From positions 2,028,484 to 2,060,483 of the forward strand of contig CBDDBY010000005.1 in the NCBI GenBank assembly GCA_965225925.1: 32,000 bases of DNA, read 5' to 3'. Shown piece after piece: positions 1,452-31,207 of the stretch (position 1 is the stretch's first letter; every line of letters begins with the position of its first letter). This DNA comes from Dehalococcoidia bacterium (lineage in GTDB: Bacteria > Chloroflexota > Dehalococcoidia > Lucifugimonadales > JAGWBF01). Below the pieces are notes generated by a model. The model saw only the letters and a program-made list of their open reading frames with translations, was not told where the DNA came from and ran no database searches. The position numbers and the translations under genes were made by a program.

Positions 1452-1468
1452 ATCTTCAGCCTCCCCAA

Positions 1469-2362: not shown

Positions 2363-2400
2363 GGTGGTCCCCTTGACGACCGGCGCCAGCCCCTGGCGGT

Positions 2401-3294: not shown

Positions 3295-3302
3295 AAGTAT
3301 CC

Positions 3303-4457: not shown

Positions 4458-4578
4458 GGCTGCACCTCCCGCTCTCTGGCTGTTTGGGACAGTCCTACAC
4501 TATGAGCTGGTATGTCCTCATCTGGAGGCCGGATAAACGCAGTTGATTGGACCGGGTGGACCGGCGGTTTTATGGGTG

Positions 4579-5574
4579 CTATCGGGGTGCGCAGCCACGG
4601 ATGATGTTGATCGCCTGGTCCTTGGCATCGGGACCGCCGACGGCCGGGAATATGATGGGAAGGTTTATGCCCGCTTTCCGATACTTATCCAGCCCCTGGC
4701 GGCACTCTTCCCCGCTGCCTGCGAGGGAGAGTATGTCGATAAGGCCGGCGGGTACCAGCTGCATGGCTGTTTCTATATCTCCGCTCCCCCACGCCACGCG
4801 TATCGCCTCCAACTCCTCGGTGAACCCGCTCTGAGCCATCAGCCTGCGGTACCTGGGGAAGAAGCCGGCATACATGGCGACGGCGAACCGCATGGCGTCC
4901 CTGGCCTTGTCTTTGTCGTCGGAAACGGCGCAGGGAATCATGGTCGCCACGTCCACATCCTTCGGGTCCCTCCCCGCCCGCTTGGCCCCTACCGCCACGT
5001 GGTCTACGGTGGTCTTTGCCTGGTCCAGGGTGGACCAGACACACAGGGCTCCATCAGCGATCTCCCCGCAGACTTCGAGCATCTTGGGAAACACCGCCGC
5101 CAAGTATATCGGTATTTCTTTTCGCACGGGCTCGATGCCCATGTCGAAGTGATTGATGTTGAATATTTTGCCTTCGTAGGAGACCTCTCCGTCCCGGAGC
5201 AGCGCCCGCACGATGTCCGTTGTCTCTCTGATGCGCTGAATGGGTTGGGAATAGACGATGCTGTGCTCTGGCTCCACCTGGACCTTGTGGCTTGAGCCCA
5301 GACCAAGGAGGAAACGGCCGCCGGAAAACTCATCAACACAGGCCGAGGCCATGGCGATGGTGGGAGCGCTTCGCACGAACACGCTGGATATACTTGTCCC
5401 CAACAGGATCTTTTTGGTGGCCAGGGCGCAGGCGGTGAGAATGGAGAACTGGTCCCCGCCATGTCCCTCGGCCATCCAGGCCGAGTCGTAGCCCAGCTCA
5501 TCCGCCAGTTGGACGCACTCCACGATCTCCTTGGGACTCATACCTCCAGCGAAGGCTACACCAAGACGCTCCAT
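4579..5574 (-). CDS. Luciferase-like (LLM) flavin/F420-dependent oxidoreductase, copy 2
   Basis: Paralogue of 456-1451 with long identical peptide runs. The ORF opens at a GTG at 5580, but the ATG at 5574 (MERLGVAF) aligns with the copy-1 N-terminus MERIGLAF and has GGAG upstream. Confidence 0.85.
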   Translation of the reverse strand: MERLGVAFAGGMSPKEIVECVQLADELGYDSAWMAEGHGGDQFSILTACALATKKILLGTSISSVFVRSAPTIAMASACVDEFSGGRFLLGLGSSHKVQVEPEHSIVYSQPIQRIRETTDIVRALLRDGEVSYEGKIFNINHFDMGIEPVRKEIPIYLAAVFPKMLEVCGEIADGALCVWSTLDQAKTTVDHVAVGAKRAGRDPKDVDVATMIPCAVSDDKDKARDAMRFAVAMYAGFFPRYRRLMAQSGFTEELEAIRVAWGSGDIETAMQLVPAGLIDILSLAGSGEECRQGLDKYRKAGINLPIIFPAVGGPDAKDQAINIIRGCAPR

Positions 5575-5679
5575 GTCCACACTCCATCAGGCTGATGTGG
5601 CCCGCAATCCTTACCACACTTGCCCGTTCAGATGAATTTAGCAAGGCACCCGGGGCAACAAACAGGATGTTGCGCGTTT

Positions 5680-5708
5680 ACTGTAATCAGTCCTGTATCT
5701 GATGTCAA
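5680..5708 (-). promoter_or_regulatory. Sigma70-like promoter candidate TTGACA-17-TACAGT (minus strand)
   Basis: Read on the minus strand: TTGACA (5708-5703), a 17-nt spacer, then TACAGT (5685-5680). It lies in the 214-nt gap upstream of the LLM copy 2 gene. Confidence 0.4.
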
Positions 5709-5794
5709 CGGCCTCGGGGATGGCAGCGGAGGGCCAATCGCCTTTCAGCAATCCAAAGACCGCCTTAGCGCCCTTTCGGTGGCCGGACCCTGGT

Positions 5795-6694
5795 CTACTT
5801 CAGTTGGACGTGCTCTCTGAGCCAGCCGGTGATCATCTCGAACACCTGGCTCAGGTAGGGCTCCTCATAAACGCCGTAATGAGAAATGCCGGGGATGACC
5901 CACAGCTTCTTCGGCTGGTTGGTACGGTTGTACATGTCAACCACGTGTTCGGGAGGGCCGATGTTATCTCCCTCAGCCACGATGTACAGCATCGCCCTGG
6001 GCGAGATGCGGTGCACCACGTCTATCGGGTTGAACTCCAGCAACTTTTCCACGCTGGCCAGGGAATAGGAGACACCCTTGGGCTCCTCCATCCCCGGCAC
6101 ATTGACCCGCACACGTTCCCTGGCCTCTGCGGTGGCTGGGTCTCCGGGCATGATCTCCCCCAATGGCACCACCTCCGACTTCCCCGTCACCACCCGGGAC
6201 CTCTTATCTTGTTCGATGCGGTCCAGGAAATGCAGGTATTCCCAATGGCGCCAGCCGCTGCGCATCAACCGCTCCCAGCTGCTCCAGCCCACCACACTCA
6301 CGCCGCACGCGACCCGGTCGTCCACACCGGCCACGTATGGGACCATCCCTCCACCGAAACTCCAGCCTGCCAGGGCCAGCTTCCCCGGGTCCACCTTTGG
6401 ATGGAGCTCCAGGTAGGTCAAGGCGTTGCGGATATCCTCGGCCTGTTCCAGGGGATATAGCCGTCCATGTTCGCCCTCACTCTCGCCGATGCCCCGGTAG
6501 TCCCAGATAAAGGCCACACAGCCCAGATCGGCCAGCTTGCGCCCGAGATAGGGTAACCACCAGTACTCTTTGATCCCCACCATGCCCTGGCAAAGCACGA
6601 TGCCGGGACAACTCCGGTCCTGGGCTGCCTCGGGCTCGTACAGTATTCCCGCGATCCTGAGGCCGTCGCTGTAAAACCCGACTTTTGTCTCCAA
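5795..6694 (-). CDS. Alpha/beta hydrolase, paralogue 3
   Basis: Nucleophile elbow G-W-S-F-G-G, with the same blocks as the other two copies. The ORF opens at a TTG at 6703. The TTG at 6694 gives METKVGFYSDG, matching MERKVSFYSDG and MELNVGIHSDG of the paralogues, with an AAGAGG SD 9 nt upstream. Confidence 0.8.
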   Translation of the reverse strand: METKVGFYSDGLRIAGILYEPEAAQDRSCPGIVLCQGMVGIKEYWWLPYLGRKLADLGCVAFIWDYRGIGESEGEHGRLYPLEQAEDIRNALTYLELHPKVDPGKLALAGWSFGGGMVPYVAGVDDRVACGVSVVGWSSWERLMRSGWRHWEYLHFLDRIEQDKRSRVVTGKSEVVPLGEIMPGDPATAEARERVRVNVPGMEEPKGVSYSLASVEKLLEFNPIDVVHRISPRAMLYIVAEGDNIGPPEHVVDMYNRTNQPKKLWVIPGISHYGVYEEPYLSQVFEMITGWLREHVQLK

Positions 6695-6851
6695 ACCTGT
6701 CAACCTCTTATCTCTTTATCCCGCTGTGGCTCCAGATACGCGACTCCTAGGCGATGGAGCGATTATAGGTGCGCCCTCATCAGGTGTCAACAACGATTTA
6801 AGAGGGCGGGACCGGCTGAAGAATATCGGCCCAGCGCTAAAATTTCGGGGG

Positions 6852-6880
6852 TTGACTCCCTGGATAGGACAGGCTACTCT
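6852..6880 (+). promoter_or_regulatory. Sigma70-like promoter candidate TTGACT-17-TACTCT
   Basis: Hexamers with a 17-nt spacer lie in the divergent 209-nt intergenic region, about 30 nt upstream of the VOC gene's SD (GAGGAGG at 6901-6907). Confidence 0.35.
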
Positions 6881-6912
6881 CTCCCTACACCTAGGGCAAC
6901 GAGGAGGCTGGA

Positions 6913-7374
6913 TTGTTCACCAACGTGCACCACGTCACCTATGTGGTGGAGGACGTGGACCAGGTGGCCGAGTACATGGAGCGGAACTTTGGCATGAAGC
7001 CCGAGGTGGCCGATGAAGCGCCGGATAAGGGCTACAAATTCATCGTGTATTGGGTAGGGTCAACCTATTTTGACTTCGTTGAACCCACAACCGATGACAC
7101 CGCCACCGCCCGTTTCTTAAAGGAGCACGGCCCTGGGCTGAGCCACGTCGTATGGGGTGTGGACGGGATTGACCAGGTCTTCCAGGACCTGAAGAGTAAG
7201 GGTAATGTGCTGCAGGCCAACCAGGCCAATCAGGACGGCCCCAGCAGCAACATCTTCGGGATAAGGGCCCTGCATATAGACCCCGGCAGCGCCCACGGTG
7301 TTTACTGGCAGCTGGCCGAGGGAGAGGGGCCGCATAAGGGATGGAAGTACCAGGGACCAGGAGCTGACCGCTAG
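6913..7374 (+). CDS. VOC/glyoxalase-fold protein (methylmalonyl-CoA epimerase-like), 153 aa
   Basis: TTG start 5 nt after GAGGAGG. The N-terminus HHVTYVVEDVDQVAEYMERNFGM and the later LSHVVWGVDGID are typical of the paired beta-alpha-beta-beta-beta VOC modules. Confidence 0.7.
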   Translation: MFTNVHHVTYVVEDVDQVAEYMERNFGMKPEVADEAPDKGYKFIVYWVGSTYFDFVEPTTDDTATARFLKEHGPGLSHVVWGVDGIDQVFQDLKSKGNVLQANQANQDGPSSNIFGIRALHIDPGSAHGVYWQLAEGEGPHKGWKYQGPGADR

Positions 7375-7385
7375 TTAAAGGTGAA

Positions 7386-8354
7386 GTGATGAGTCAAAAG
7401 AAGATAGGGATCGCAGGCTGGGGCATAACGTTTCCTGGAGCGGACAGCGTCGGCATCCTGGAGACCCTGAAAAAGGCGGAAGAGTTGGGAGTCTATGGCG
7501 TATGGCTGGCCACGGGGCCGACCTCCCAGGCGGATGCCCTGACCCTCCTGGGGGCCGTGGCCGTGTCCACCCAACGGATGATGTTGGGGACGGCCATCAC
7601 TCCCACATGGCCGCGCCACCCCGTGGTTATCGGGCAGCAGGTCCAGGTGCTAGCCCAGCTGGCCCCCGGCCGGTTCCGGCTGGGGTTGGGCATGGGCCAT
7701 CAGGCAGCCATGGAGGAGACATACGGGGTGGACTTCAATGCGCCTCTGAGCCACCTGAAAGAGTACGTGCAGATCCTGAAGGCGTTGCTTCAGAAGGGTT
7801 CGGTGGATTTCGACGGCAAGTACTACAAGGCCCACGCTCGAGTGGCGGCGCCGGTGGACGTGCCAATAATGATCGCGGCCCTTCAGCCCCGGTCCTTCGA
7901 GCTGTGCGGCGCCGAGGCGGACGGGGCCATCAGATGGGTCTGCCCCAGGCCCTACCTGAGGGATGTGGCCCTCCCCACCATGAGGGCCGCAGCGGCGAAG
8001 GCGGGCAGGCCGGTTCCGGCCCTCATCGCCCACGCCCCGGTCTGTGTTCACGACGACCCAGTGGAGGCACGGGCTGCCATACGGGAGCAGGTCAGGTCAC
8101 TGAGGCCCGGGCAACCCTTCTACCGGCGCATGTTTGTCACGGCGGGTTACCCCGAGGCCGCCCAGGGGGAATGGAGCGACGCCATGATAGACGCCACCGC
8201 CCTTGTGGGTAACGAGGACCAGGTGGCTGAGCAGATGGAGGAGCTTTTCGAGCTGGGCGCTACGGAGGCGGTGGTTTCCCCCATGCCCGCAGGCAAGGAC
8301 CGTGCCGCCTCCCAGGAGCGCATCTTGCAGATGCTGGCCAAGGCTTCTCGCTGA
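7386..8354 (+). CDS. LLM-class F420/flavin-dependent oxidoreductase, tandem copy A (322 aa; alternative ATG start at 7389)
   Basis: Shares blocks with the next two genes (PRHPVV, QLAPGRFRLG, VDFDG.YY, RSFELCGAE.DGAI.W.CP, AHAPVCVHD.P, EWSDAMIDA, LGATE). Confidence 0.85.
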   Translation: MMSQKKIGIAGWGITFPGADSVGILETLKKAEELGVYGVWLATGPTSQADALTLLGAVAVSTQRMMLGTAITPTWPRHPVVIGQQVQVLAQLAPGRFRLGLGMGHQAAMEETYGVDFNAPLSHLKEYVQILKALLQKGSVDFDGKYYKAHARVAAPVDVPIMIAALQPRSFELCGAEADGAIRWVCPRPYLRDVALPTMRAAAAKAGRPVPALIAHAPVCVHDDPVEARAAIREQVRSLRPGQPFYRRMFVTAGYPEAAQGEWSDAMIDATALVGNEDQVAEQMEELFELGATEAVVSPMPAGKDRAASQERILQMLAKASR

Positions 8355-8384
8355 GCCCAGATTGCCAGATTTAAGGATAAGCCG

Positions 8385-9353
8385 ATGAACCAGAAGCGGA
8401 TCGGAGTGGTGGTGGGGGGGACAGGATTTATAGACCCCCTCAGCCCGGATCTCCTTAAGGAGATCGAGGAGGCGGAGGGCCTGGGTATTCCGGCGGTTTG
8501 GATGCCAACATTCTTCGGGGGCCCCGAGCCCTTGACTATGTTCGCCAGTGCCGCTGTGCGCACCGAAAAAATTCAAATGGGCTCCTCTATCGTGCCCACC
8601 TATCCCCGGCATCCGGTGGTCACGGCCCACCAGGTAGAAGTCATCGCCCAGCTTGCCCCCGGGCGCTTCCGGTTGGGAGTTGGGCCAAGCCATGGGCCTT
8701 TAATTCGGGACATCTACGGGTTGGACTTCAGGGCCCCTCTTGCGGGCCTCAGTGAGTACATGCATATACTCAAAGTTCTGTTAAAGGAGGGCGCGGTGGA
8801 CTTCGACGGGCGCCACTACAGTGCCCATGCCCGCATGGCCGCCCCGGTGGATGTGCCGGTCATGGCCTCTGCCCTCCGGCCCAAGTCCTTCGAGTTGTGT
8901 GGGGCCGAGTCCGATGGGGCCATCAGCTGGGACTGCCCCGGCGCATACCTGCGGGACGTGGCCTTGCCCGCCATGAAGGCCGGAGCTGACCGGGCCGGCC
9001 GGCCTGTGCCGCCTCTGCTTGCCCATGCCCCGGTGTGTGTCCATGATGACCCGGAGGAGGGGCGGGCCGCCATGAGGGAGCACCTTTTCAGCCCGCTTCT
9101 GCCCTTCTACCGGCGTATGTTTGCCGCCGCGGGATTCCCTGAGGCCTCCAACGGGGAATGGAGCGACGCCATGATAGACGCCGTGGCCCTGTGGGGTAAC
9201 GAGTCCCAGGTGGGAGAAAAGCTGCTGTGGCTGTTCGAGATTGGCGCCACCGAGGTCGTGGCGGCGCCTGTACCGGCGGGGAAAGACCCGGAGGCCTCAA
9301 TGAAGCGCACCCTTCGGCTGCTGTCCCAGGTTTCACCCCACGTTTCACCCTAG
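8385..9353 (+). CDS. LLM-class F420/flavin-dependent oxidoreductase, tandem copy B (322 aa)
   Basis: Same length and blocks as copy A. AAGGA SD precedes the ATG. A 30-nt stretch (9153-9182) is identical to 8166-8195 in copy A. Confidence 0.85.
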   Translation: MNQKRIGVVVGGTGFIDPLSPDLLKEIEEAEGLGIPAVWMPTFFGGPEPLTMFASAAVRTEKIQMGSSIVPTYPRHPVVTAHQVEVIAQLAPGRFRLGVGPSHGPLIRDIYGLDFRAPLAGLSEYMHILKVLLKEGAVDFDGRHYSAHARMAAPVDVPVMASALRPKSFELCGAESDGAISWDCPGAYLRDVALPAMKAGADRAGRPVPPLLAHAPVCVHDDPEEGRAAMREHLFSPLLPFYRRMFAAAGFPEASNGEWSDAMIDAVALWGNESQVGEKLLWLFEIGATEVVAAPVPAGKDPEASMKRTLRLLSQVSPHVSP

Positions 9354-9364
9354 GAGGTTGTGGA

Positions 9365-10303
9365 ATGAGCGGAAAAATCATCGGCATATCGGTATTGGGT
9401 CCTGATAGCCAGGCGGTGCTGGCCGAGATAGAGAGGGCCGAAGAGCTGGGCATCGGGGCTGTCTGGCTGACCACGGGTGTGGGCCTGGACGCCCTCACCC
9501 TCTTCGCCGCCGCCGCCGTGCGGACGCGCCGCATCTTGCTTGGAACGGCCATAACCCCAACATTTCCCCGGCACCCCGTGGTGGTTGCCCAGCAGGTCCA
9601 AGTCCTGCATCACCTGGCCCCGGGCCGGTTCCGCCTGGGGGTCGGCCCCAGCCATCGCCCCATCATGGAGGGTACATTCGGCGTTGACTTCCATGCTCCC
9701 CTGGGGCACCTGAGCGAGTACATCCATATCCTCAAGTCTTTGTTGCACAAGGGGGCCGTGGACTTCAATGGGCGCTACTACAAATCCCATACCGAGATGG
9801 GGTTGACCGTGGATGTTCCTGTTATGGCCTCGGCCCTTCAGGCCAGGTCCTTCGAGCTGTGTGGGGCCGAGGCGGACGGGGCCATAAGCTGGGTCTGCCC
9901 TGGGAAATACTTGAAGGAGGTGGCCCTGCCGGCCATGAAGGCCGGGGCGCAGAAGGCCGGACGACAGTTGCCACCTCTAATCGCCCACGCGCCGGTCTGC
10001 GTCCACGACAACCCCGATGAGGTCCGGGCCGCCATCCGGGAACAGGTGACCAACCCCAGGATGGCCTTCTACCAGCGAATGTTTGCATCTGCGGGCTTTC
10101 CCGAGGCCTCAGGCGGTACGTGGAGCGACGCCATGATGGACGCCACGGCGCTGACTGGGAACGAGTCTCAGGTGGAAGAGAAGTTGGATGAGATGTTTGC
10201 TCTGGGCGCAACCGAAATACTGGCGTCGCCCATTGCCGCCGGAGCCGACCGGGCGGCTTCGCTTGAACGGACGTTGAGGCTGCTGGCCCGGGTTTCATCC
10301 TAA
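9365..10303 (+). CDS. LLM-class F420/flavin-dependent oxidoreductase, tandem copy C (312 aa)
   Basis: The track ORF opens at 9227 inside copy B. The ATG at 9365 (MSGKIIGISVLG) follows an AGGAGG SD (9352-9357) and aligns with the N-termini of copies A and B. Confidence 0.85.
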   Translation: MSGKIIGISVLGPDSQAVLAEIERAEELGIGAVWLTTGVGLDALTLFAAAAVRTRRILLGTAITPTFPRHPVVVAQQVQVLHHLAPGRFRLGVGPSHRPIMEGTFGVDFHAPLGHLSEYIHILKSLLHKGAVDFNGRYYKSHTEMGLTVDVPVMASALQARSFELCGAEADGAISWVCPGKYLKEVALPAMKAGAQKAGRQLPPLIAHAPVCVHDNPDEVRAAIREQVTNPRMAFYQRMFASAGFPEASGGTWSDAMMDATALTGNESQVEEKLDEMFALGATEILASPIAAGADRAASLERTLRLLARVSS

Positions 10304-16205: not shown

Positions 16206-16811
16206 TTGAGTACCCAGGCGAACGAAATAGATGTTGTTGGCGAGATTGATCGTATTTGGCGGGACTTCAGCCATCGCCTCAGATCCTTTATTCTACGCTG
16301 GGTCCACAACGAAGCCGACGCAGAGGACATTTTACAAGATGTCTTTTGGAAGATTCATAAAAAACTTCTGAGCCTTAATCAATCAACGAAACTGGAGTCT
16401 TGGATTTATCAGATTGCGCGAAACACGATCATTGACTACTATCGCCGCCAGGGAAAAGCACCTTTGTATGTTTCTGAGGTGCCTGAACATGGGTCGGAGC
16501 CATTTGACGCTGAAGGTACACCCGAGGAAGTGGCCGCCTGTCTCAAGCCCATGATCGCTGAATTGCCCGAAAAGTACCGGCAGGCCATCCGCTTGACCGA
16601 GTATGAAGGCTTGACCCAGAAAGAAATGGCGCAAAAGCTGGGGTTGTCCTTATCTGGAGCCAAATCCAAGGTACAGCGGGCCAGGGAAAATCTGAAAAAG
16701 TCACTACTGGCTTGCTGTCACTTCGAGTTTGACCGCCGCGGCCATATCCTTGACTATGAGCTCAAAGAGCAGACCTGTCGCTACTGTTCCCAAGAGATTG
16801 CCAGCAGGTAG
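16206..16811 (+). CDS. ECF sigma factor of the SigZ type with Cys-rich C-terminal extension (201 aa)
   Basis: Sigma region 2 (EDILQDVFWKI, WIYQIARNTIIDYYRR) and region 4 (LPEKYRQAIRLTEYEGLTQKEMAQKLGLSLSGAKSKVQRAR) are present. The tail CCHFEFDRRGHILDY..CRYC is the SigZ-family signature as I recall it. TTG start lies 7 nt after AAGGA. Confidence 0.8.
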   Translation: MSTQANEIDVVGEIDRIWRDFSHRLRSFILRWVHNEADAEDILQDVFWKIHKKLLSLNQSTKLESWIYQIARNTIIDYYRRQGKAPLYVSEVPEHGSEPFDAEGTPEEVAACLKPMIAELPEKYRQAIRLTEYEGLTQKEMAQKLGLSLSGAKSKVQRARENLKKSLLACCHFEFDRRGHILDYELKEQTCRYCSQEIASR

Positions 16812-16899
16812 TTTTGCGTCCTTTTTGCCGGACCTCCGTCTATAGGTATGGAAGGCCAGCAATGGCTGGACAAAACTATACACGATGGGGAGGTTTGAT

Positions 16900-17607
16900 A
16901 TGGCCGATTCTAAGGACGTAGTAGCAGACTGCGGTTGCTCGAAAGATACGACGGTGGCGGCTCTTGGACGTGGGCCTGGATGCTGCCCTGAGAGGGATGA
17001 AGCCGTGACAGGGGGAGGCGGTCCTGGGTGCTGTGGCCCGGAATGTTGTGGGGTGGAAGAAGACGTTGTTCCGAAAGGCGACATCCAAGCCGCCAGACGA
17101 CGTCTGGACATAGAATTTCTGTACCTGGACCTGACCGTTTGCCAGCGTTGTCAGGGCACCGAAAGAAGTCTTGAAGAGGCTCTTTCCGAGGTGGCCCAAG
17201 TGCTGGAACTGTCAGGCACTGAGTTGATACTTCGGAAGACTCATGTTCAGACGGAAGAACAAGCCCGTGCTCTTGGGTTCGTTAGCTCGCCCACAATTCG
17301 CATCAACGGCCGGGACATCCAGATGGTCCGTAGTGGTCCCACGGACGTGAAGGAAAGCCCATGCGGATGTGGCCCTGCCCTGTGCGGTCAGGACATAGAT
17401 TGCCGTGACTGGGTGTATCAGGGGGAGGCTCACGATAGGCCGCCTTTAGCGCTGATTGTAGGCGCCATTCTTAAGGAGGCATTTGCAGCTGGGGAAGACG
17501 CCCCGGAGACGCCAAGCCAATTTGGAGATGTTCCAGACAACCTGAGGAAATTCTTCACCGCCAAGCGCGGTCTTGTAGCCGACAAATCGGTGGAGCACGC
17601 TGCGTGA
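16900..17607 (+). CDS. DUF2703-type (thioredoxin-like) protein with Cys/Gly-rich N-terminal extension
   Basis: The ATG at 16900 lies 5 nt after GGGGAGG, while the track ORF opens at 16885. The core FLYLDLTVCQRCQGTE...SSPTIRINGRDI...CGCGPALCG..CRDW fits my recollection of DUF2703. The N-terminus has the vicinal Cys pairs GPGCC and PECCG, plus DCGC. Confidence 0.65.
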   Translation: MADSKDVVADCGCSKDTTVAALGRGPGCCPERDEAVTGGGGPGCCGPECCGVEEDVVPKGDIQAARRRLDIEFLYLDLTVCQRCQGTERSLEEALSEVAQVLELSGTELILRKTHVQTEEQARALGFVSSPTIRINGRDIQMVRSGPTDVKESPCGCGPALCGQDIDCRDWVYQGEAHDRPPLALIVGAILKEAFAAGEDAPETPSQFGDVPDNLRKFFTAKRGLVADKSVEHAA

Positions 17608-18975: not shown

Positions 18976-19867
18976 CCTACCTCCTTGTAATCGGGGAAAT
19001 CCGGGCAATCTGGATTCACCCAACCGCCAGCGAGTAGACCTCCCCGGCGCTATCGGGTAACGGATACTCATTCCAAGAATCGCCGCCATCCAGCGAGCCA
19101 AAGACCTGGCCGTCCCTGGCGGCGCAGTATATCTGCGACGGCCTGCGCGGGTTGACGGCCACCGCCATCATGGTGCTGGCCGCCGTTACCCCGCGGTCCA
19201 AACGTTCCCAGGTCTCCCCCAGGTCTGGGCTCCGGTACAATGCCCCCACGTCGCTGCGCGCAGCTCTGCCCAAAGATACATACAGGGTGTTGGGATCTGC
19301 GGGAGAGACCAGCAGGTCCCTGGTATAGGTGATGGGCGAGTAACTGCCCAAGTCGATGGCCTCTCAAGAGTCGCCCCGTTGAGGGCCGCGGAACATCCCC
19401 TCTCTGGTGCTGATGTACACGGTCCCTGGATTTGCCGGGCTCACCACCACACCGTGGAGGTCCAAACGGTCCTCGCCTCCCTCGGATAGACCCAAGTTGA
19501 TGGGCTCCCAGGTCTCTCCACCGTCCGGGCTGCGGATCATGCCGCCAACTTCCAGGGCGGCGTATATCTGGTCGGGATACGAGGGGTCGGCGGCCATGTC
19601 AATAACCCGGGTGTCGAAGGACATGGCCATCACGTCGGGGCCCAAAGCTATGGGCAACGGCTCCCAGCTTTCACCGGCATCCTCGGTCCGAAAAATCTGG
19701 GCCGGGGCCGTACCGACGTACATAACGCTAGGCTTGTGGGGGCGAAACAAAATGGACCAGACGACGCTGCCAGCGATGGGCAGGTTCAAGGGTCTCCAGT
19801 GGTCGCCCCGGCTACCGCTGCGAAATATGCCATCCCCGGTACCGGCGAACACCACCTCCGGCCTTAA

Positions 19868-19886
19868 CCCGAATCCACCGAAGGAC
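19868..19886. repeat. IS terminal inverted repeat (left)
   Basis: CCCGAATCCACCGAAGGAC, the exact reverse complement of 21554-21572. Confidence 0.85.
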
Positions 19887-20014
19887 ACGGATGGACGGCG
19901 TGAGGGCAGCGGAAGGGGGTGGGTGAGGGAGCTACAGGGGAGATGGCCTGGGGTCTTGGGGTAGATGGGAGGCCGGCGGAGGGTCTTCAGTCGCCGCACA
20001 GGGCCCCTAAGGCC

Positions 20015-21451
20015 CTATGCGGGAGTTGCGATGCGCGGGATGGCGAGAGGATACGCAGCAGGGGACTCTCGCGACCGGGGTGGCGCGAGATTGCGGGGAC
20101 GTTGGGTCAGTTGCAGGCTGGCCGTCAGGCCGGGAATGGAATGGCTTGCAGCCGGGCCAAGGCGCGACTGAACTGGGTTTCCCAAGGCCAGCGCCGGGGG
20201 AGATGCAAAGTGAGGCGGCGCGCCGAGCGGGTGATCCGCCCCACCAGAGCGAAGACCCGCCGCCTGAGGGTCTTGGTGATCACGGTCCGCTCGCCCAGAC
20301 CAATCCGCGCCGTTCCAGCGGGCCAGGTTATGCGCCATCACCTGGCCCGCCAGCCAGGCGCCGTTGGCGGCGAAGCGCGCCGACGGCATGTGGTTCAGCC
20401 CGACACCGTACTTGAGGTCGCGTATGGCGTTCTCGACCTCGGCGTGGCGGCGATGATCGGCCTCCAGTTCCAGCGTCTCCCCATCGCGGTCGGTGATGAA
20501 GGCGTGATAGCTGTATCTGGCGAAGAGGGCGAGCTGGGAACCGGGTGTCGGCTTCACCCGCCGGACAATGAGCCGCGCCGGCGGGGCGTCCGGCTTGGTC
20601 TGGAACGGGGTGTAAGTCGTCTCGGCGACATCGGCGGCGCCGTCCATCCAGTAGGGAATGGGAGTCCAGTCCTCCTCTGGTATCGCCTCGATCAGGTCCC
20701 GCAGGCTGGCGCGCTGGCGGATGGTGATAGAGAAGCGGACATCCATTTCCCGGCAGGCGGCAACGACAGTGTGGGCGTAGAAGCCGCTGTCGGCCCGCAC
20801 CGTGAGTTGTCCCCTGGCCCCGCCGTAGCGCACCCGCCCCACCGTCTCACGCAGGAAGTGGGCCGCGCCACGGGCGGTGTTGGCCCGGCCCTCGCGCAGC
20901 CGGGACAACAGCACCTCGCCGGTGCCGGCGGCAATGGCCAGCAGCGGGTGATAGCCGCGGGCGCCGGTATAGCCGTGGTGGCGCGCTCCCTCCTTGGCCA
21001 GTCCATAGGTCTCGCAGATGGTCGAGTCCAGGTCGATGGTCAGGGGCGAGTCGCCGGGTCCGGCCCCAGCGGCCCAAGCCCGGGCCAACAACTGGCGGCT
21101 CACGCGGTCGAGTTGACGGACATGCCCCCACCGGAAGCTGCGCAGGAAGGTCCCCAGGGTGGATGACGCCTTGACCACGCAGCCTAGAACACCGACCGTC
21201 TCACCAGCGCGCAGCGCATCGGCGTCGTCGATGCAGTCGCCGCCTGCCAGCGCGGAAGCGACCAGCGTCAGCATCTTGTCCCCAGTGTTCGCCCGTCCCG
21301 GCGCTCCGCCGAGGTCAAGGTGATGGTCGACGAGTTCCCGCAGGCCCAGGTGCCGGGCTAGGGTGGCCGGCAGGAGCAGGCCGGCATTGGCCACCAGGCG
21401 ATGGTCGTCAAAGAGGATGCGCATACGGTCGAATTTGTTCTGTGGCAGCAT
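20015..21451 (-). CDS. DDE transposase, IS1380 family (478 aa)
   Basis: AAGGAG SD lies 10 nt upstream of the ATG. The N-terminal pattern (FDDHRLVANAGLLLPATLARHLGL...GDCIDDADALR...SSTLGTFLRSF) and the C-terminal HRRHAEVENAIRDLK block resemble IS1380/DDE_Tnp_1_4 transposases as I recall them. Confidence 0.8.
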   Translation of the reverse strand: MLPQNKFDRMRILFDDHRLVANAGLLLPATLARHLGLRELVDHHLDLGGAPGRANTGDKMLTLVASALAGGDCIDDADALRAGETVGVLGCVVKASSTLGTFLRSFRWGHVRQLDRVSRQLLARAWAAGAGPGDSPLTIDLDSTICETYGLAKEGARHHGYTGARGYHPLLAIAAGTGEVLLSRLREGRANTARGAAHFLRETVGRVRYGGARGQLTVRADSGFYAHTVVAACREMDVRFSITIRQRASLRDLIEAIPEEDWTPIPYWMDGAADVAETTYTPFQTKPDAPPARLIVRRVKPTPGSQLALFARYSYHAFITDRDGETLELEADHRRHAEVENAIRDLKYGVGLNHMPSARFAANGAWLAGQVMAHNLARWNGADWSGRADRDHQDPQAAGLRSGGADHPLGAPPHFASPPALALGNPVQSRLGPAASHSIPGLTASLQLTQRPRNLAPPRSRESPAAYPLAIPRIATPA

Positions 21452-21553
21452 CTATTGGGTGCTCCTTGTTTCCGGGCTGGTTTCTGTTCCAAAACCATTA
21501 TCCCAGATTCAGAGGAGCACCCTCTGGCTTCTTCAAGGACTGTCCCCAAGGCC

Positions 21554-21572
21554 GTCCTTCGGTGGATTCGGG
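21554..21572. repeat. IS terminal inverted repeat (right)
   Basis: GTCCTTCGGTGGATTCGGG, the exact reverse complement of 19868-19886. Confidence 0.85.
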
Positions 21573-21741
21573 CTTAGAGGATGGGTGGTGATTACCCTCA
21601 CCTCGGGAGAAGGGGGCAGGCCGTTGGTAATCTCCTCCCACCCCTCTACTGCGGGCGACTTCCGGAAGAGGCCGCCAGTCCCCGCGCCGGCATAGACGTA
21701 AGGTTCCGCGACATCCATTCTTACCTCCGACGTTAGCCCGC

Positions 21742-22452
21742 CTACCGAAGGTGCAAATGCTTGAAGCTCTCGGCGTAATCCATGCCGTGGTGCTGGCCCG
21801 CCTTCTGCTTCCACTCCCGCACCCAGCCGTCGGACTCAAGGCTGTCTCCCACCTGGGACACGTGCCGCTTCAGCGCCTCGATGGCTACTTCGATAGTATC
21901 TGAAACGTCTATCCACTTGTCGGGATCGTTGTAGTCGGGCACCAGGACCTCGCGGACCTTGTGGGGCTCCAACCCCTCCTGGAGCAGCTCCGGAAAGGTC
22001 ATACGGTCTCGGGCAGCAGGGAATACCGCGGCCAGGGTTGCCTCTCCCACCGCCAGATGGTCGGGATGGCCGATCCACTGGCTCGCCTTCAGCTCTCTTA
22101 CGGGACTTGGACAGATCAGGATGTCCGGCTTGTGCCTCCTGATCTGCCTCACGATGTCCCGCCGGAGCTCCAGGGTGGGCTGGAGCATGGAGTCCTCGTA
22201 ACCGAGGAAAACCACATCCTTCAAACCCAGGACCTCGCCCGCCGCGATCTGCTCCTCCCGCCGTATCCCCGCCAGTTCCTCGGAGGTCATAGATGGGTTA
22301 CTGCTGCCCTTACTGCCGTCGGAGCATATAACGTACACCACCTCTATCCCCTCCCCACACCATTTGGCCACAGTCCCTGCGCAGGAATATTCGGCGTCGT
22401 CGGCATGAGCCATCACCACCATCCCCCGTGTGTAAGGCAGCTCTTGAGTCAT
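21742..22452 (-). CDS. LmbE/PIG-L family N-acetylglucosaminyl-type deacetylase
   Basis: Metal-binding boxes VVMAHADDAEY and GHPDH are present. The ATG at 22452 avoids overlap with the upstream gene, whereas the track ORF opens at 22542. It lies 58 nt downstream of the CysRS-GT2 stop on the same strand. Confidence 0.8.
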   Translation of the reverse strand: MTQELPYTRGMVVMAHADDAEYSCAGTVAKWCGEGIEVVYVICSDGSKGSSNPSMTSEELAGIRREEQIAAGEVLGLKDVVFLGYEDSMLQPTLELRRDIVRQIRRHKPDILICPSPVRELKASQWIGHPDHLAVGEATLAAVFPAARDRMTFPELLQEGLEPHKVREVLVPDYNDPDKWIDVSDTIEVAIEALKRHVSQVGDSLESDGWVREWKQKAGQHHGMDYAESFKHLHLR

Positions 22453-22510
22453 AGAACGTCTATCCTTCTTAATAGAATAAATGGAGGCATCCAGGCGGCG
22501 ATTGACGGTG

Positions 22511-24694
22511 TCAGGAGTGGTGGGTCTTGTTACTGGAAACAAGGAGGTCCGTCCTGTCGCCCCACTTTTTCAGGAAACGCTTGAAGTTTTTGTGGCTAAG
22601 CTGGTCCCGCTCGGCCTCTCCCAGGGCGCTCCACTGGCGGTGTTCGTGGCGGGTGAAAGGGAGGCTGCCGTCGGCCACTATCCGGTAACCCTGGTCCTTG
22701 AACTGAAAGCTGAAGTCCAGGTCCAGATTACGATAAAAGCGGAAGGTTTCACGCATAAGGCCCACCCGGCCCGACAGGGGGCGGCGAAAGGCCAGGCAGT
22801 AGGCCTGCATGGCGTCGGCGTCGTTGGAGCCCACCTCTTCGTGGAAGTGCCGGAGGTCGTCGGTTCGAAGCCCCCAGGGTCCCACCAGGCCTATGGACTC
22901 CTCCTCCAGCCACCTGCCCACGGGGCCCAGGACGTCGCCGCAGACTTCCACCGAGGTGTCGACAATCACTATGTTCTTGCCCAAGCTCTGTTTCAACCCG
23001 ATATTCTTGGCGGCCGCTTCTCCCAGCACATGGTCGCAGAATATGACACGGACGCGGGAGTCCCGTTGCTGCAACTCCTGGAGCCACTCGGATGTGCCAT
23101 CAGTGGAGCCGTTGTCCACCAAAACCAGCTCGGCGGAATATCCATCGGACCATTTCAAGATGCTCTCGGCGCACCGCTTCACATCGTCTATGTAGTTGCT
23201 GGCGGTTATAACAAATGAGAATTCAACCTTGTTGGGCAAATCTAGATAGGTCTCCACTTCCTTGGATGAGGAGACTGCCTTCCATCGCTCATTGCGGGTC
23301 TCCAGGCGAGTCTTGGGCCGGACCTTGGTATCCTCCCGAGTATCCCTCACCAAGTATCCCTCGCCGGCAAGGTTGGAGCGTAGCGTATCGGCCCTGTGAT
23401 AATCGGCCCTCTTACGGAAGCCGTCCCTTTTAGTAACGGTTGACTGGATTTGGCGGGAAAGCTCGTAACGGCCAGGCACCTCATCCAGCCTGAGTCCCAG
23501 GATACGGTCCAGTTCCAAAAGTAGCTGGAGCTTGGCCTGACCGGGCAGATTTGAGTGAACCATATCCCACGTCAGGCCCAGGGCCCTGGGCAGGTCCAGG
23601 TCGCTCTCCACGGCGTCCATCAGTTTTCCCTGCCATTCCTCCGACTCCTGGGGCAGACTGGACAGGGGTGGGAGGTTTCGCCACTCGACAACACGGTTCC
23701 TGAGGCTGGTCAGGGCCCGCTCGGCGGCCCGAAGGGCCGAGAAGGTGAAATTCATCCTGTGCCTGTACCTGACTGTGAGGCAGAGATACCGGAATGACAG
23801 GGGATCGAAACCCCGTTGCTCCAGGTCATCCAGGATGAACTCGTTCCCAGCCGACTTCGCCATCTTTACCCCGTCGGCGAGGAGGTGCTGGCCGTGCACC
23901 CAGTAGCGCACGAAGGGCTTGCCAAATGCCGCCTCGCTCTGGGCTATCTCGTCCTCGTGGTGGGGGAAGATGTTGTCCACGCCTCCCGTGTGTATGTCCA
24001 GTTGCTCTCCCATGTATTTGGTGGACATGGCGGAGCATTCAATATGCCAACCTGGGAATCCCTCACCCCAGGGACTGTCCCACTTCATTTCCCTGCCGGG
24101 TTCCGCCGCCTTCCAGAGGGTAAAGTCACGGGGGTCCCTTTTCAAAGGGTCGGCTTCCATCTTAACCCCCTCCATCAGCCCCTCCCCGACGTTACCCGAC
24201 AACTTCCCGTAATCGGTGAACTTCCCTACCTCGAAGTAGATGTTGCCCCCGGCCTCGTAGGCGTATCTTTTTTCAAACAGCCGGTCTATAACGGCCAGCA
24301 TTTCCTGGATATGGTCGGTGGCCCAGGGGAAGTGGTGGGCTGGGAGAACGTTGAGCTTCTCTTCGTCTCTGTGGAAGGTCTGTGCGTAGAACCGGGCTAT
24401 CTCCTGGGGAGTCTTCCCCTCGGCGAGAGCGGCCAGTATCACTTTGTCCCCACCGGTCTCGAGCATCTCCTGCCGCATGTGGCCCACATCGGTAATGTTC
24501 TTGACGTGGACCACGTTGTATCCCCGGTACTCCAGGGCCCGTTTGATCCAGTCGGCCATCATGTAGGTGCGGAGGTTGCCTATATGGGCATAGCGGTACA
24601 CGGTCGGGCCGCAGGTGTACATGCGTACTACCCCGGGCTCCAGGCTGGTGACCTCTTCGATGGTCCTGGTGAGAGTATTATAGATGCGTAGCAA
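22511..24694 (-). CDS. cysS: Cysteinyl-tRNA synthetase-type enzyme fused to a C-terminal GT2 (GT-A fold) glycosyltransferase domain (727 aa)
   Basis: TTG start. CysRS motifs are present: HIGH (AHIGN, aa 36-40), KMSKS (KMAKS, aa 277-281), the Zn/Cys boxes TCGPTVY, GWHIECSAM and FPHHEDEIAQSE, and a helical C-terminal region to about aa 460. A GT2 domain follows at about aa 489-690 (FSFVITASNY, LVLVDNGSTDGT, IVIVDTS; nt about 22625-23230). Confidence 0.85.
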   Translation of the reverse strand: MLRIYNTLTRTIEEVTSLEPGVVRMYTCGPTVYRYAHIGNLRTYMMADWIKRALEYRGYNVVHVKNITDVGHMRQEMLETGGDKVILAALAEGKTPQEIARFYAQTFHRDEEKLNVLPAHHFPWATDHIQEMLAVIDRLFEKRYAYEAGGNIYFEVGKFTDYGKLSGNVGEGLMEGVKMEADPLKRDPRDFTLWKAAEPGREMKWDSPWGEGFPGWHIECSAMSTKYMGEQLDIHTGGVDNIFPHHEDEIAQSEAAFGKPFVRYWVHGQHLLADGVKMAKSAGNEFILDDLEQRGFDPLSFRYLCLTVRYRHRMNFTFSALRAAERALTSLRNRVVEWRNLPPLSSLPQESEEWQGKLMDAVESDLDLPRALGLTWDMVHSNLPGQAKLQLLLELDRILGLRLDEVPGRYELSRQIQSTVTKRDGFRKRADYHRADTLRSNLAGEGYLVRDTREDTKVRPKTRLETRNERWKAVSSSKEVETYLDLPNKVEFSFVITASNYIDDVKRCAESILKWSDGYSAELVLVDNGSTDGTSEWLQELQQRDSRVRVIFCDHVLGEAAAKNIGLKQSLGKNIVIVDTSVEVCGDVLGPVGRWLEEESIGLVGPWGLRTDDLRHFHEEVGSNDADAMQAYCLAFRRPLSGRVGLMRETFRFYRNLDLDFSFQFKDQGYRIVADGSLPFTRHEHRQWSALGEAERDQLSHKNFKRFLKKWGDRTDLLVSSNKTHHS

Positions 24695-25597: not shown

Positions 25598-25601
25598 TCA
25601 A

Positions 25602-26074
25602 GGGGGCCAGGTAGGCTGGGTGGCCGCTTCCCCGGACTCTGGGGGAGAGGAAAGTCCGGGCTCCACCGGGCAGGGTGCTGGGTAACGCCCAGGCTCCTCG
25701 ACGGTGTAAATCATTGTCGGGGAGACGGAAAGTGGCACAGAAACTATACCGCCAACGCACCCCGGGAAGGCCTGGAAGGAAGGGTTTAACCAGCTTTCCA
25801 TGATTTCTCGGGGTGCGTTGGTAAGGGTGAAATCGGGTGGTAAGAGCGCCCGGCCGGCCGTGGCGACACGGCGGTGGTCAAACCCCACCTGGAGCAAGGC
25901 CGAATAGGGGGACAATAGGCGCCCGGCCTGTCCCCGGGTTGGCCGCTCGAGTCCGGCGGCAACGCCGGACCTAGATAGATGGTCACCGTCCTGACGGCCA
26001 GCGGGGGGCCCACAGAGGCTCGCCATCTGACCGGCCAGGATACAGAACCCGGCTTATAGGCTTGCCTGGCCCCT
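25602..26074 (+). ncRNA. rnpB: RNase P RNA, bacterial type A
   Basis: Universally conserved blocks are present: GAGGAAAGTCCGGGCTCC (25647-25664) and ACAGAACCCGGCTTAT (26042-26057). So are GGTAAGGGTGAAA..GGTAAGAGCGC, GGAGCAAGGCCGAATAGGGG and CTAGATAGATGG, colinear with E. coli M1 RNA as I recall it. A 14-bp P1 stem pairs 25603-25616 with 26060-26073. Confidence 0.92.
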
Positions 26075-28685: not shown

Positions 28686-30122
28686 ATGAACAGGCTAAAT
28701 CGTCTTCAAGGAATGCGGGACCTACCCCAGGAGTTCTGGCTCCCACTCAAGGCAGCCCAGGACCGCTTGAGGGAAGTTTTTTTCCTCCACGGCTACCGGG
28801 TGCTGGAGACGCCGGTGCTTGAGGCGACGGAGCTATTCCTGCGCAAGTCCGGCGGGGAGCTGGCAGCCCGTTTGTACAGCTTCAGTGACCAGGGAGGGAA
28901 CCGGGTAAGTCTTCGACCGGAATATACCGCCTCTATACTCAGGCACTACCTGGAGCAGTCCGAACCTAGTCCCCTGCCGGTGCGGGTCCAGTATGCGGGA
29001 CCGGTTTTCCGCCACCAGGAGGATGGCTTCCTCGACAGGCAGTTCACCCAGGCCGGAGCCGAGCTTTTGGGCTCCTCGGACCCCAGGGCCGATGCCGAGA
29101 TACTGTCCCTTTGTTGCCACGCCCTATTGAGCCTTGGCCTGGACGGCCATCGTCTGGAAATTGGAGACATCGGAATCCCCCGCCGGATATTGGAATCCCT
29201 AGGCCTCTCCGAAAGGGCCATTGTGTTCATCCTAGGCAGCATTTCCGAGCTGGCAGAGGGGCCGGACGGGCTTGCCAAAGTGAAGGAAAGGGCGGAACAG
29301 CTGCGGCTCCTGGCCGCCGGCCCCCGGCAGACCGATCTGGGCGCGGCCATCCGGGAAATGGAAGAAAATAAAGCCAGAGAGCTGTTGCACGGCCTGCTGG
29401 AATGGGCCCAGGCGGGCTCTTTGGGGCAACGTGAGCCTACGGATATCGTGGAGAGGTTGCTGCGCAAGTTCCAGGGGAGCGATGACCCCGCCAGATTTCA
29501 GCAGGGGCTGGAAGTTGCCTATGAGCTGGCCGGTATAAATGGAGATGCCAAAGGTTGTCTCGAGGAGGCGGGTAAGCTCATCAAGTCTTATGACCTGGAC
29601 CCGTCGACAACGGACAGGCTGAGGAATGTGATGGGGCTCCTTGACGAAGTGCAGCCCTCCGGTACTACATTGGTCCTGGACTTCGGTCTGGCCAGGGGTC
29701 TCGCTTACTACACCGGCATCGTCTTCGAGATATGGCACCCCGCCAGTGACGTCTCCCTGGGAGGAGGCGGCAGGTACGACGGCCTGGCCAGGGCTCTGGG
29801 CAGTCACTCCGGCATCGCTGCTCTCGGCTTCGCCTACAATCTCGAACAGTTGGTGTACGCTCTTGAATCGGCGGGAAACCCGGCGAAGGGGGCCGATGAC
29901 GCAGGAGAGGGCGTGCTGGTGGTGGCGTCCGAGGCAACAGGTTACAAGGAAGGGCTCCTGCTGGCCCGGAAGCTGCGCAGCGAAGGGACCCCAGTGGAGA
30001 TGGATATGTGCGGCATGAACGTGGAGGAGAGCCTCTCCTACGCCAGAAGCAGAGGCATCGCCGAAGTGATCGTGGTGGACGGCGACGGGAATCCTACTAG
30101 CTATAAGCCTGGGGAGAGCTGA
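28686..30122 (+). CDS. Histidyl-tRNA synthetase paralogue, probably HisZ-like regulatory subunit (478 aa)
   Basis: HisRS blocks are present: GMRD, LRPEYTA, RGLAYY, GGGRYDGL, and a C-terminal anticodon-binding-like alpha/beta domain. Motif 2 reads FRHQEDGFLDRQFTQ, and motif 3 reads NLEQL instead of GLERL. The stop overlaps the hisG ATG (TGATG). Confidence 0.7.
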   Translation: MNRLNRLQGMRDLPQEFWLPLKAAQDRLREVFFLHGYRVLETPVLEATELFLRKSGGELAARLYSFSDQGGNRVSLRPEYTASILRHYLEQSEPSPLPVRVQYAGPVFRHQEDGFLDRQFTQAGAELLGSSDPRADAEILSLCCHALLSLGLDGHRLEIGDIGIPRRILESLGLSERAIVFILGSISELAEGPDGLAKVKERAEQLRLLAAGPRQTDLGAAIREMEENKARELLHGLLEWAQAGSLGQREPTDIVERLLRKFQGSDDPARFQQGLEVAYELAGINGDAKGCLEEAGKLIKSYDLDPSTTDRLRNVMGLLDEVQPSGTTLVLDFGLARGLAYYTGIVFEIWHPASDVSLGGGGRYDGLARALGSHSGIAALGFAYNLEQLVYALESAGNPAKGADDAGEGVLVVASEATGYKEGLLLARKLRSEGTPVEMDMCGMNVEESLSYARSRGIAEVIVVDGDGNPTSYKPGES

Positions 30123-31207
30123 TGCCTTCAGAACTCAATCGGTCGAGAGTTCTCCGCGGATCGGTGGAGACCACCCAAGAGTCCCAGGTGAGTGGCGGTA
30201 GCGAAGGGGAGCTTAGGCTGGTCCTGCCCAGCGACGGTGACCTCTACGAGCTGTCGTTGGACTTTCTGAGGTCCTGCGGCATCCCCGCGGCGAGGCCCAG
30301 CCCGCGTAGCTACACGGCCCGCATCCCCTCTCTGCCCCGCTCTATAGTGCTGTTCCAACGAACGGCGGACATCGCCGGGAAGGTTGAGGAGGGCAGCGCA
30401 GAGCTGGGAATAACCGGCCTGGACCGCTTCCTGGAGTTTCGAGAGGAAGCCAGCCCTGTGATTCCCATCATCGAGAACCTGGGGTTCGGCCACTGCGAGC
30501 TGGTGCTGGCGGTGCCCGATTCGTGGCTGGACGTAGTCTCCATGGATGACCTGGCGGACCTGGCCCTGGAGTTCAGGCAGAAGGGTCGACAGCTACGCAT
30601 CGCCACCAAGTACCCTCGGCTGGTCCGGGGTTATCTTTACCATAGTGGGATCAACTATTTTTCTCTAGTGCAGGCCAGCGGTACTTTGGAAGCGGCGCCG
30701 GCCGCCGGATATGCGGACCTTATCGCCGATCTTTCGGCCAGTGGGACGACCTTGCGGGAGAACCGGCTGAAGACCCTGGAGGATGGCGCCATCCTGGCCT
30801 CCCAGGCCTGCCTCATAGGTAACCCCAAACTCCTGAAGGCGGCGCCGTGGGGTCTGGAACTGGTCCGTCCCATGCTTGAGATTATGGAGGGGCGCCTGAG
30901 AGCCGGCTCTTTCTACCGCCTCACCGCCAACGTCAAAGGCCCGTCTCCTGAAGCAGTGGACTCCGGCATTCTCGCTAGACCCGGTCTGGCGGGGCTCCAG
31001 GGCCCGACGGTTTCCCGGGTATATAGCGCCGAAGGAGAAGACTGGTACGCCGTGAGTCTCCTGGTGCCCAGGGACAAGCTTCTGGATGCGGTGAACCACC
31101 TGCGACAGACGGGCGGGGTGGATATATCGGCTTCCCAGGTCAGCTATCTGTTTCAGGACCAGTGCGGGCCCTACCAAAAGATTGTTGATTCGCTGGACGG
31201 TGTTTGA
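30122..31207 (+). CDS. hisG: ATP phosphoribosyltransferase, long form with C-terminal regulatory domain (361 aa including an N-terminal extension of about 30 aa)
   Basis: The core begins LRLVLPSDGDLYELSLDFLRSCGI, with DLSASGTTLRENRL later. A HisG_C-like tail is present (YRLTANV...GLQGPTVSRV...WYAVSLLVPRDKLLDAVNHLRQTGGVDISASQV). GGGGAG SD lies 4 nt upstream of the ATG. Confidence 0.85.
   Translation: MPSELNRSRVLRGSVETTQESQVSGGSEGELRLVLPSDGDLYELSLDFLRSCGIPAARPSPRSYTARIPSLPRSIVLFQRTADIAGKVEEGSAELGITGLDRFLEFREEASPVIPIIENLGFGHCELVLAVPDSWLDVVSMDDLADLALEFRQKGRQLRIATKYPRLVRGYLYHSGINYFSLVQASGTLEAAPAAGYADLIADLSASGTTLRENRLKTLEDGAILASQACLIGNPKLLKAAPWGLELVRPMLEIMEGRLRAGSFYRLTANVKGPSPEAVDSGILARPGLAGLQGPTVSRVYSAEGEDWYAVSLLVPRDKLLDAVNHLRQTGGVDISASQVSYLFQDQCGPYQKIVDSLDGV

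Follow-up and report, generated by a model that had tools for sequence, protein, structure and literature searches.

Why should a cysteinyl-tRNA synthetase (CysRS) read on without a stop codon into a glycosyltransferase, and what does it mean that the gene after it, read from the same strand, encodes a PIG-L/LmbE-family deacetylase? The question is raised by a stretch of 32,000 nt (the window) from contig CBDDBY010000005.1 of a Dehalococcoidia bacterium, in which the three enzyme types lie together at positions 21742–24694. Sugar transfer, deacetylation by an LmbE-type enzyme and activation of cysteine also constitute the logic by which mycothiol (MshA/B/C/D) and bacillithiol (BshA/B/C) are made, and the original prediction for this locus was a new pathway to a glycoside–cysteine thiol, with the CysRS module as a ligase resembling MshC, the Cys:GlcN-Ins ligase of mycothiol synthesis. 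It was accompanied by a counter-argument, namely that the protein might be a housekeeping CysRS to which an accessory domain has been added, and this has turned out to be the better-supported reading, as judged by hidden Markov model (HMM) scores, gene neighbours and the pattern of adjacency. We consider it fairly likely that the gene encodes the ordinary CysRS of its lineage joined to an active, soluble and probably inverting glycosyltransferase domain of the GT-A fold, with the LmbE gene as a lineage-specific neighbour.

The fusion gene and its synthetase module

The fusion gene occupies positions 22511..24694 on the minus strand, where an open reading frame (ORF) of 727 codons starts with TTG at 24694 and ends with a stop codon at 22511–22513. 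That this is one complete gene is borne out by matches to Pfam and NCBIfam models, by homologues and by an AlphaFold2 (AF2) model of the full-length protein; the start codon and the entire architecture agree with more than 100 full-length homologues. The Pfam and NCBIfam searches also confirm all three domain calls made initially – a complete CysRS-type ORF of 727 aa, a family 2 glycosyltransferase (GT2) and an LmbE protein – and the motifs quoted for them (AHIGN, KMAKS, TCGPTVY, GWHIECSAM, FPHHEDEIAQSE, LVLVDNGSTDGT and IVIVDTS) are all present in the translation. Sequences resembling ribosome-binding sites (RBS) lie 5' of both the fusion and the LmbE start codons. In a search for a leader RNA or T-box upstream of the fusion, Rfam finds only the RNase P RNA.

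Starting from the N-terminus, the protein consists of a Rossmann-type CysRS catalytic domain (aa 1–340, 23675..24694, minus strand; PF01406), to which Pfam matches tRNA-synt_1e at aa 16–325 with E 1e-97, followed by a helical bundle and a C-terminal α/β anticodon-binding domain (aa 341–470, 23285..23674, minus strand), as delimited by TIGR00435 and by structure alignments. The HIGH motif reads H37-I-G-N40, the KMSKS motif reads K277-M-A-K-S281, and the zinc/cysteine site is formed by C28, C220, H245 and E249. All these residues are invariant in our alignment A2 and kept in 205 of 207 full-length fused sequences.

The proposal of an MshC-like ligase is not supported by profile scoring. Against the NCBIfam model for cysS (TIGR00435), the module scores 418.2 bits, above the cutoff of 340, and spans model positions 1–464 of 466, whereas against the MshC model (TIGR03447) it scores 216.1 bits, well under the cutoff of 485.1. 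The solved structures that match it best in sequence are the true CysRS enzymes 8QHP and 3SP1 (325 bits); MshC matches at 166 bits, and only over aa 2–373. The alignment to Borrelia CysRS (3SP1) extends to its residue 499 of 501 and thus includes the anticodon-binding domain, and a profile (A1) matches the C-terminus of the CysRS 3TQO. The full-length model superposes on all 461 residues of Escherichia coli CysRS in its tRNA complex (1U0B_B) with TMt 0.83, and CysRS structures outrank MshC in the structure comparison. The Pfam CysS_C model falls above the E 0.01 limit in the window protein, although relatives do match it.

By every feature tested, then, the N-terminal module looks like a tRNA-charging CysRS rather than an MshC-type ligase. 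With canonical CysS (E. coli 1LI5 and 1U0B, Borrelia 3SP1, 8QHP), it shares the HIGH and KMSKS motifs, the zinc/cysteine site, the helical bundle and the anticodon-binding domain; it differs from CysS by the added GT-A domain of about 240–250 residues, found in none of the CysRS structures that it matched. With MshC (3C8Z, 8HFM), it shares the CysRS-derived cysteine-adenylating core, but MshC, of about 410 aa, has neither an anticodon-binding domain nor an attached glycosyltransferase, whereas the fusion protein has both. The complete motifs, the complete anticodon-binding domain, the HMM scores and the structural matches thus all point to tRNA charging: the N-terminal 470 residues would activate cysteine and load it onto tRNA-Cys in the usual way.

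The glycosyltransferase domain and its long association with CysRS

Beyond a short structured linker (aa 471–489, 23228..23284, minus strand), the rest of the protein (aa 490–727, 22514..23227, minus strand) is a glycosyltransferase domain of the GT-A fold and the GT2 family. Pfam places Glycos_transf_2 (PF00535) at aa 493–613 with E 1e-17 and 64.6 bits, against a gathering cutoff of 23.3. A separate model of aa 441–727, built with a 73-sequence alignment, has a predicted local distance difference test score (pLDDT) of 93 and a predicted template modelling score (pTM) of 0.89. In Foldseek, this model matches many GT-A enzymes with probability 1.00, E values as low as 5e-13 and TMq reaching 0.68, including the catalytic domain of ppGalNAc-T2, the Leptospira glycosyltransferase 6P61, WrtF and K4CP. 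HMM profile alignments pair D579 with the first Asp of the DxD motif in K4CP, GalT1 and 6P61. With these soluble GT-A enzymes (GalT1 as 5HEA), the domain shares the fold (TMq 0.55–0.68), an alignable nucleotide-binding half and an Asp at the DxD position, and with the ppGalNAc-Ts also a C-terminal His. Sequence identity to them is 15–22%, and the fusion has D-x-S-x-E rather than DxD or DxH; its acceptor-half motifs (HFHEE, DAMQAYC, RFYRNLDLD and RHEHRQW) have no characterised counterpart.

At the DxD position, the window protein reads D-T-S-V-E and the family as a whole D-x-S-x-E, with D579, S581 and E583 essentially invariant. Further invariant positions include D527 (in VDNGS), D554, N564, the glycine-loop residues G605 and G608, D627, Y632 and R638; in the C-terminal part, these are joined by RFYRNLD658LD660, H683-E-H685, W688 and a conserved C-terminal helix. 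From what is generally understood of the GT-A core, we take the invariant residues to comprise the donor-binding Asp, the Asp of the DxD position, the xED catalytic base and the C-terminal metal-binding His; D658 would be the xED-like base, an assignment made from the position and order of its motif alone.

An appendage of this kind might have become non-catalytic, serving the CysRS as a structural, oligomerising or nucleotide-sugar-sensing element. Such a role would be in keeping with the altered DxD motif and with the fact that 8QHP, the PDB entry matched best by the CysRS part, is a homodimer. It would also fit the loss of the nucleotide-binding Asp in two relatives: in L078, and in P0272, where the donor Asp is gone and the CysRS intact, a pattern that likewise fits with CysRS being the primary function. 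Nonetheless, D527, D554, D579, E583, D658, H683 and H685 are retained in about 97% of the 207 sequences, and the core positions persist across lineages whose GT2 domains are merely 35–45% identical, which is hard to explain without catalysis or specific ligand binding. We therefore regard a non-catalytic domain as quite improbable, and the GT2 domain as apparently intact and active: its roughly 240 residues would take up a nucleotide-sugar and pass the sugar on to an acceptor, probably with inversion. As the fusion protein has no hydrophobic segment (the highest Kyte–Doolittle value in a 19-residue window is 1.35), membrane association was ruled out and the glycosyltransferase should be soluble.

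How old is this union? A scan with a profile of the GT2 domain, covering one genome per Genome Taxonomy Database (GTDB) species, found relatives in 438 species, and the best 80 loci among these were examined. All 80 are from Dehalococcoidia, SAR202 or Chloroflexota metagenome-assembled genomes, many of them complete chromosomes, and in 78 the CysRS and GT2 parts form a single ORF, the remaining two looking frameshifted. The fusion is thus kept in at least 438 species genomes; complete chromosomes with it include OZ240206.1, OZ244792.1, OZ253476.1 and OY761541.1. A protein search found at least 120 clusters of full-length homologues at 64–98% identity, those with names being labelled ‘cysteine--tRNA ligase [Dehalococcoidia bacterium]’, and clustering at 50% identity shows that the fused family reaches down to about 50% identity in the CysRS part (representatives P0263, P0264, P0267, P0268, P0269, P0272, P0273 and P0274). 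In a neighbour-joining tree, the fused proteins make up essentially one clade. The nearest unfused sequence (P0271, 51% identity) represents Ca. Limnocylindria, a sister class within Chloroflexota, and other Chloroflexota – the pattern expected for an orthologous housekeeping gene after the gain of a domain.

Both active sites are under purifying selection, with 200 of the 207 full-length fused sequences keeping all 25 key residues scored across the two domains. Candidate stand-alone matches to the GT2 family were checked, and no genuine independent copy was found among them; two apparent cases, P0208 and P0249, were discarded as frameshift splits, each found on a low-coverage contig immediately behind a CysRS ORF. 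The union is therefore both old and widespread. The glycosyltransferase would have been gained once, in an ancestor within Chloroflexota/Dehalococcoidia, and – since no genuine stand-alone copy turned up – would have stayed attached to CysRS ever since. Support for the housekeeping role of the synthetase also comes from its neighbours in eight deep-branching fused lineages, which are of housekeeping type: other aminoacyl-tRNA synthetase (aaRS) genes, GroES/EL, RecO, PRPP synthetase and BipA.

Other departures from the standard CysRS architecture were seen among the 50%-identity representatives, in P0353 and P0282. One of the two has a PALP domain (PLP-dependent, cysteine-synthase-like) ahead of CysRS, in a protein of 768 aa; the other, of 858 aa, looks like two tandem CysRS units.

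The position of the GT2 domain within the fusion raises the further question of whether its acceptor might be the tRNA itself. For the full-length AF2 model, pLDDT is 84.7 and pTM 0.82, and the linker region (aa 461–490) is confidently modelled both there (pLDDT 81–94) and in the domain model (86–95), which suggests that the short linker ties the GT2 domain in a fixed arrangement to the anticodon-binding end of the synthetase. A domain held directly behind the α/β anticodon-binding domain, belonging to a family seen only with CysRS and having an acceptor half rich in invariant Arg and His, could conceivably glycosylate tRNA-Cys or Cys-tRNA-Cys while it is bound to the synthetase. However, the GT2 domain is acidic overall (net charge −6), with a C-terminal half close to neutrality throughout the family, which is atypical of a nucleic-acid-binding surface, and no comparable modification of a bacterial tRNA with a sugar is known to us. 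Glycosylation of the bound tRNA is accordingly a long shot in our estimation, and, like a non-catalytic GT2 domain, it is less likely than either an ordinary CysRS with an active glycosyltransferase or the thiol route discussed below.

Several points weigh against the reading of an ordinary CysRS joined to an active glycosyltransferase. It names neither the sugar donor nor the acceptor. Metal binding by the GT2 domain is not certain, because the last residue of its DxD motif is Ser instead of Asp. That the fused gene is the genome's only cysS is something we infer. A further case is P0307 (L163:10001-12238, from ERZ25067144), an intact fused ORF of 745 aa that occupies the same syntenic position as normal fused genes (compare L082 and L172), with pyruvate kinase on one side and polyprenyl synthase and MetRS on the other. 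In its CysRS part, the HIGH-motif sequence AHIGN has become VDINQ, KMAKS has become KMATR, and E249 and W216 are lost; in its GT2 part, D527 and D658 are gone. The product resembles a pseudo-enzyme, and since it has lost HIGH, KMSKS and a zinc/cysteine-site residue, its genome must charge tRNA-Cys otherwise, so that at least one lineage requires a second route to Cys-tRNA. The joint decay of the two sites, although a single case, is compatible with a glycosyltransferase that is useful only beside an active CysRS. Both this decay and the strict association of GT2 with CysRS suggest a functional coupling that the term ‘accessory domain’ leaves unexplained.

The LmbE gene and the case for a thiol

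The deacetylase gene (236 aa plus stop) lies at 21742..22452 on the minus strand and belongs to PF02585 (E 4e-31; 108.8 bits against a cutoff of 28.2). Its zinc-site motifs AHADDAE and HPDH are present, and the corresponding residues H16, D18, D19 and H129-P-D-H132 are invariant in alignment A3. The longest ORF, 21742..22542 with a TTG start, overlaps the fusion gene; all 14 orthologues, however, begin at an ATG equivalent to position 22452, and the spacer between the fusion stop codon and the LmbE start is therefore 58 nt (22453..22510, minus strand), exactly as first described. The spacer contains the RBS-like element AAGAAGGA, and no terminator-like site was found between the two genes. In the window's own lineage, LmbE and the fusion are thus probably co-transcribed.

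The arrangement invites a route similar to those of mycothiol and bacillithiol, in which GT2 would make a GlcNAc-glycoside, LmbE would deacetylate it and the CysRS site would join Cys to the amine thus freed, besides charging tRNA or in its place, to give a cysteine–aminosugar thiol specific to Dehalococcoidia. Several lines of evidence speak for such a route. The three enzyme types are found together, probably in one transcript, in 23 related species as well as in the window, and MshC itself shows that a CysRS core can evolve ligase chemistry, the window core being alignable to MshC at 166–216 bits. The exclusive attachment of this GT2 family to CysRS and the simultaneous decay of the two sites in P0307 would also suit coupled functions, and our literature searches surfaced no low-molecular-weight thiol of Chloroflexota: they returned no paper on the subject, and one SAR202 paper lists an annotated ‘mycothiol maleylpyruvate isomerase’ and nothing further.

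Set against these are properties of the enzymes themselves. The CysRS module is a full cysS product with its anticodon-binding domain and none of the truncation seen in MshC. The LmbE protein falls under every thiol-pathway cutoff: its best NCBIfam match is BshB1, with 87 bits against 182.5, followed by BshB2 (75 against 195), Mca (62 against 277) and MshB (31 against 224). MshA and BshA are GT4 enzymes of the GT-B fold, unlike the GT-A/GT2 domain of the fusion. Moreover, the order of domains along the chain puts GT2 at the anticodon end, which in CysRS–tRNA geometry is far from the aminoacylation site, and channelling of an intermediate within one monomer would therefore be unlikely.

The linkage itself weakens the pathway reading further. 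Among the 80 species loci, 23 have LmbE as the gene immediately downstream of the fusion, and these form the group with GT2 domains nearest to that of the window. In the other 57, a profile search at E<=1 revealed no LmbE-family ORF within about 10 kb, and none was found near the fusion in any of the eight deep-branching lineages. A complementary scan of metagenomes with an LmbE profile retrieved 339 relatives, of which the best 80 were examined; at those loci that could be judged, with upstream DNA long enough, GT2 was found upstream only in the three closest (66–77% identity). The remaining orthologues among the best 80 (55–66% identity) come mostly from marine contigs, presumably of SAR202 type, and sit in a different conserved block, which comprises genes for an ArsM-like methyltransferase, a molybdoenzyme resembling sulfite oxidase, a protein with four rhodanese domains, a cupin resembling cysteine dioxygenase (CDO), a member of the enolase superfamily, NIPSNAP and a GNAT acetyltransferase. 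This block was seen at L109, L111, L118-L121, L125, L133, L140, L143-L145 and other loci, with LmbE at about 6001–6700 where the flanks are complete.

With adjacency missing from most loci and LmbE orthologues residing elsewhere, the LmbE gene accompanies the fusion in a lineage-specific manner and does not qualify as its conserved partner. Their adjacency may reflect no more than inherited gene order, as the rest of the block around the LmbE of the window lineage – including a BNR/Ycf48-like gene and a quinone oxidoreductase – has no functional theme. The marine block includes genes related to sulfur and cysteine (those for the Mo enzyme, the rhodanese protein, the cupin and GNAT), and this counts in favour of the thiol route. 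So does the wide occurrence of LmbE orthologues of comparable divergence, given which LmbE and the fusion could co-occur in a genome without being neighbours.

Taken together, the tests that were run went against the thiol proposal and leave it weakened, not refuted, with the co-location of the three enzyme types still standing. A pathway of this design is, in our judgement, unlikely, and we attach the same low expectation to its broader form, whereby Dehalococcoidia including SAR202 would make a third cysteine–aminosugar redox thiol, with LmbE adjacent or elsewhere and the housekeeping CysRS doubling as the ligase. Were it true, the fusion would represent a living intermediate of the transition from CysRS to MshC.

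Gene surroundings and significance

If LmbE is not a general partner of the CysRS–GT2 fusion, other neighbours might be, and three further candidates were considered and rejected. At loci without LmbE, genes for a MeaB-like GTPase and for HPF, a ribosome hibernation factor, are found downstream (about 45 loci) and CoA-transferase-like and oxidoreductase genes upstream; these neighbours are conserved yet functionally unrelated, and the downstream pair lacks a functional theme. Peptidase_S51, of the dipeptidase E/cyanophycinase family (L165:5240-5938, L167:3964-4632 and L168:3614-4282), adjoins the fusion in two deep-branching lineages, being divergently oriented in one and overlapping the fusion stop codon in the other, but elsewhere it lies 7–9 kb away, at a few loci, or is absent. 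Amidohydro_3 follows the fusion in L172 and is lineage-specific.

In the window, a BNR/Ycf48-like gene, which in related genomes comes next after LmbE, is broken by an insertion sequence at 19850–21590, with a DDE_Tnp_1_4 transposase ORF at 20018–21451 (minus strand) and imperfect inverted repeats of 37 nt at 19850–19886 and 21554–21590. Fragments of the gene remain at about 21533–21716, 19364–19999 and 19016–19351, whereas intact orthologues encode about 342 aa (e.g. L009:13511-14536). On the other side of the fusion, a class A RNase P RNA spans 25608–26072 on the plus strand (264.9 bits, complete model), flanked by a zinc-ribbon/CT398-like gene and a biotin–protein ligase gene; because it overlaps this RNA, the minus-strand ORF at 25598–26026 is spurious.

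Further from the locus, positions 28686–31204 (plus strand) contain a HisRS-like gene (tRNA-synt_His, with no anticodon-domain match reported) and, 2 nt later, a long-form HisG with HisG_C; the two may constitute a HisZ/HisG pair, which would be unusual if HisG is truly of the long form. The region 459–10300 is occupied by repeated cassettes with luciferase-like monooxygenases (459–1451, 4582–5580, 7386–8351 and 9227–10300) and paralogous α/β hydrolases (1472–2362, 2404–3294 and 5798–6703), together with a Rieske protein and a beta-lactamase-family gene – a paralogue expansion of the kind reported for SAR202-type Chloroflexota. Finally, an ECF-type sigma factor gene followed by one for a DUF2703 protein with a Cys-rich N-terminus (16206–17604, plus strand) may encode a sigma/anti-sigma-like pair.

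To return to the fusion, the architecture is real, conserved and apparently undescribed as a case of an aaRS with an appended catalytic domain, and full-text literature searches found no report of a fusion between a glycosyltransferase and CysRS or any other aaRS. Synthetases with extra catalytic domains are rare, and in those cases that are understood, the added domain is tied to the amino acid or to the aminoacyl-tRNA. Mycobacterial LysX, for example, is a fusion of LysRS with MprF. The nearest precedent that the searches retrieved is a fusion of MetRS with an aminotransferase in Mycoplasma penetrans (PMC7694997). In both, a synthetase is likewise joined to a second catalytic domain, whose link to the amino acid or aminoacyl-tRNA is known, unlike that of the glycosyltransferase predicted here.

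The architecture is already present in public databases, where it is labelled merely cysteine--tRNA ligase, and the fusion matters for annotation because these proteins of 727 aa are described there by that name alone. Beyond annotation, an apparently essential translation enzyme bears a conserved, apparently active predicted glycosyltransferase in hundreds of species, in a class that includes SAR202, for which high abundance in the deep ocean has been reported. The identity of the acceptor would reveal whether the fusion represents a new link between cysteine or tRNA-Cys and sugar metabolism, a new low-molecular-weight thiol of Chloroflexota, or just an unrelated enzyme that has travelled with an essential gene.

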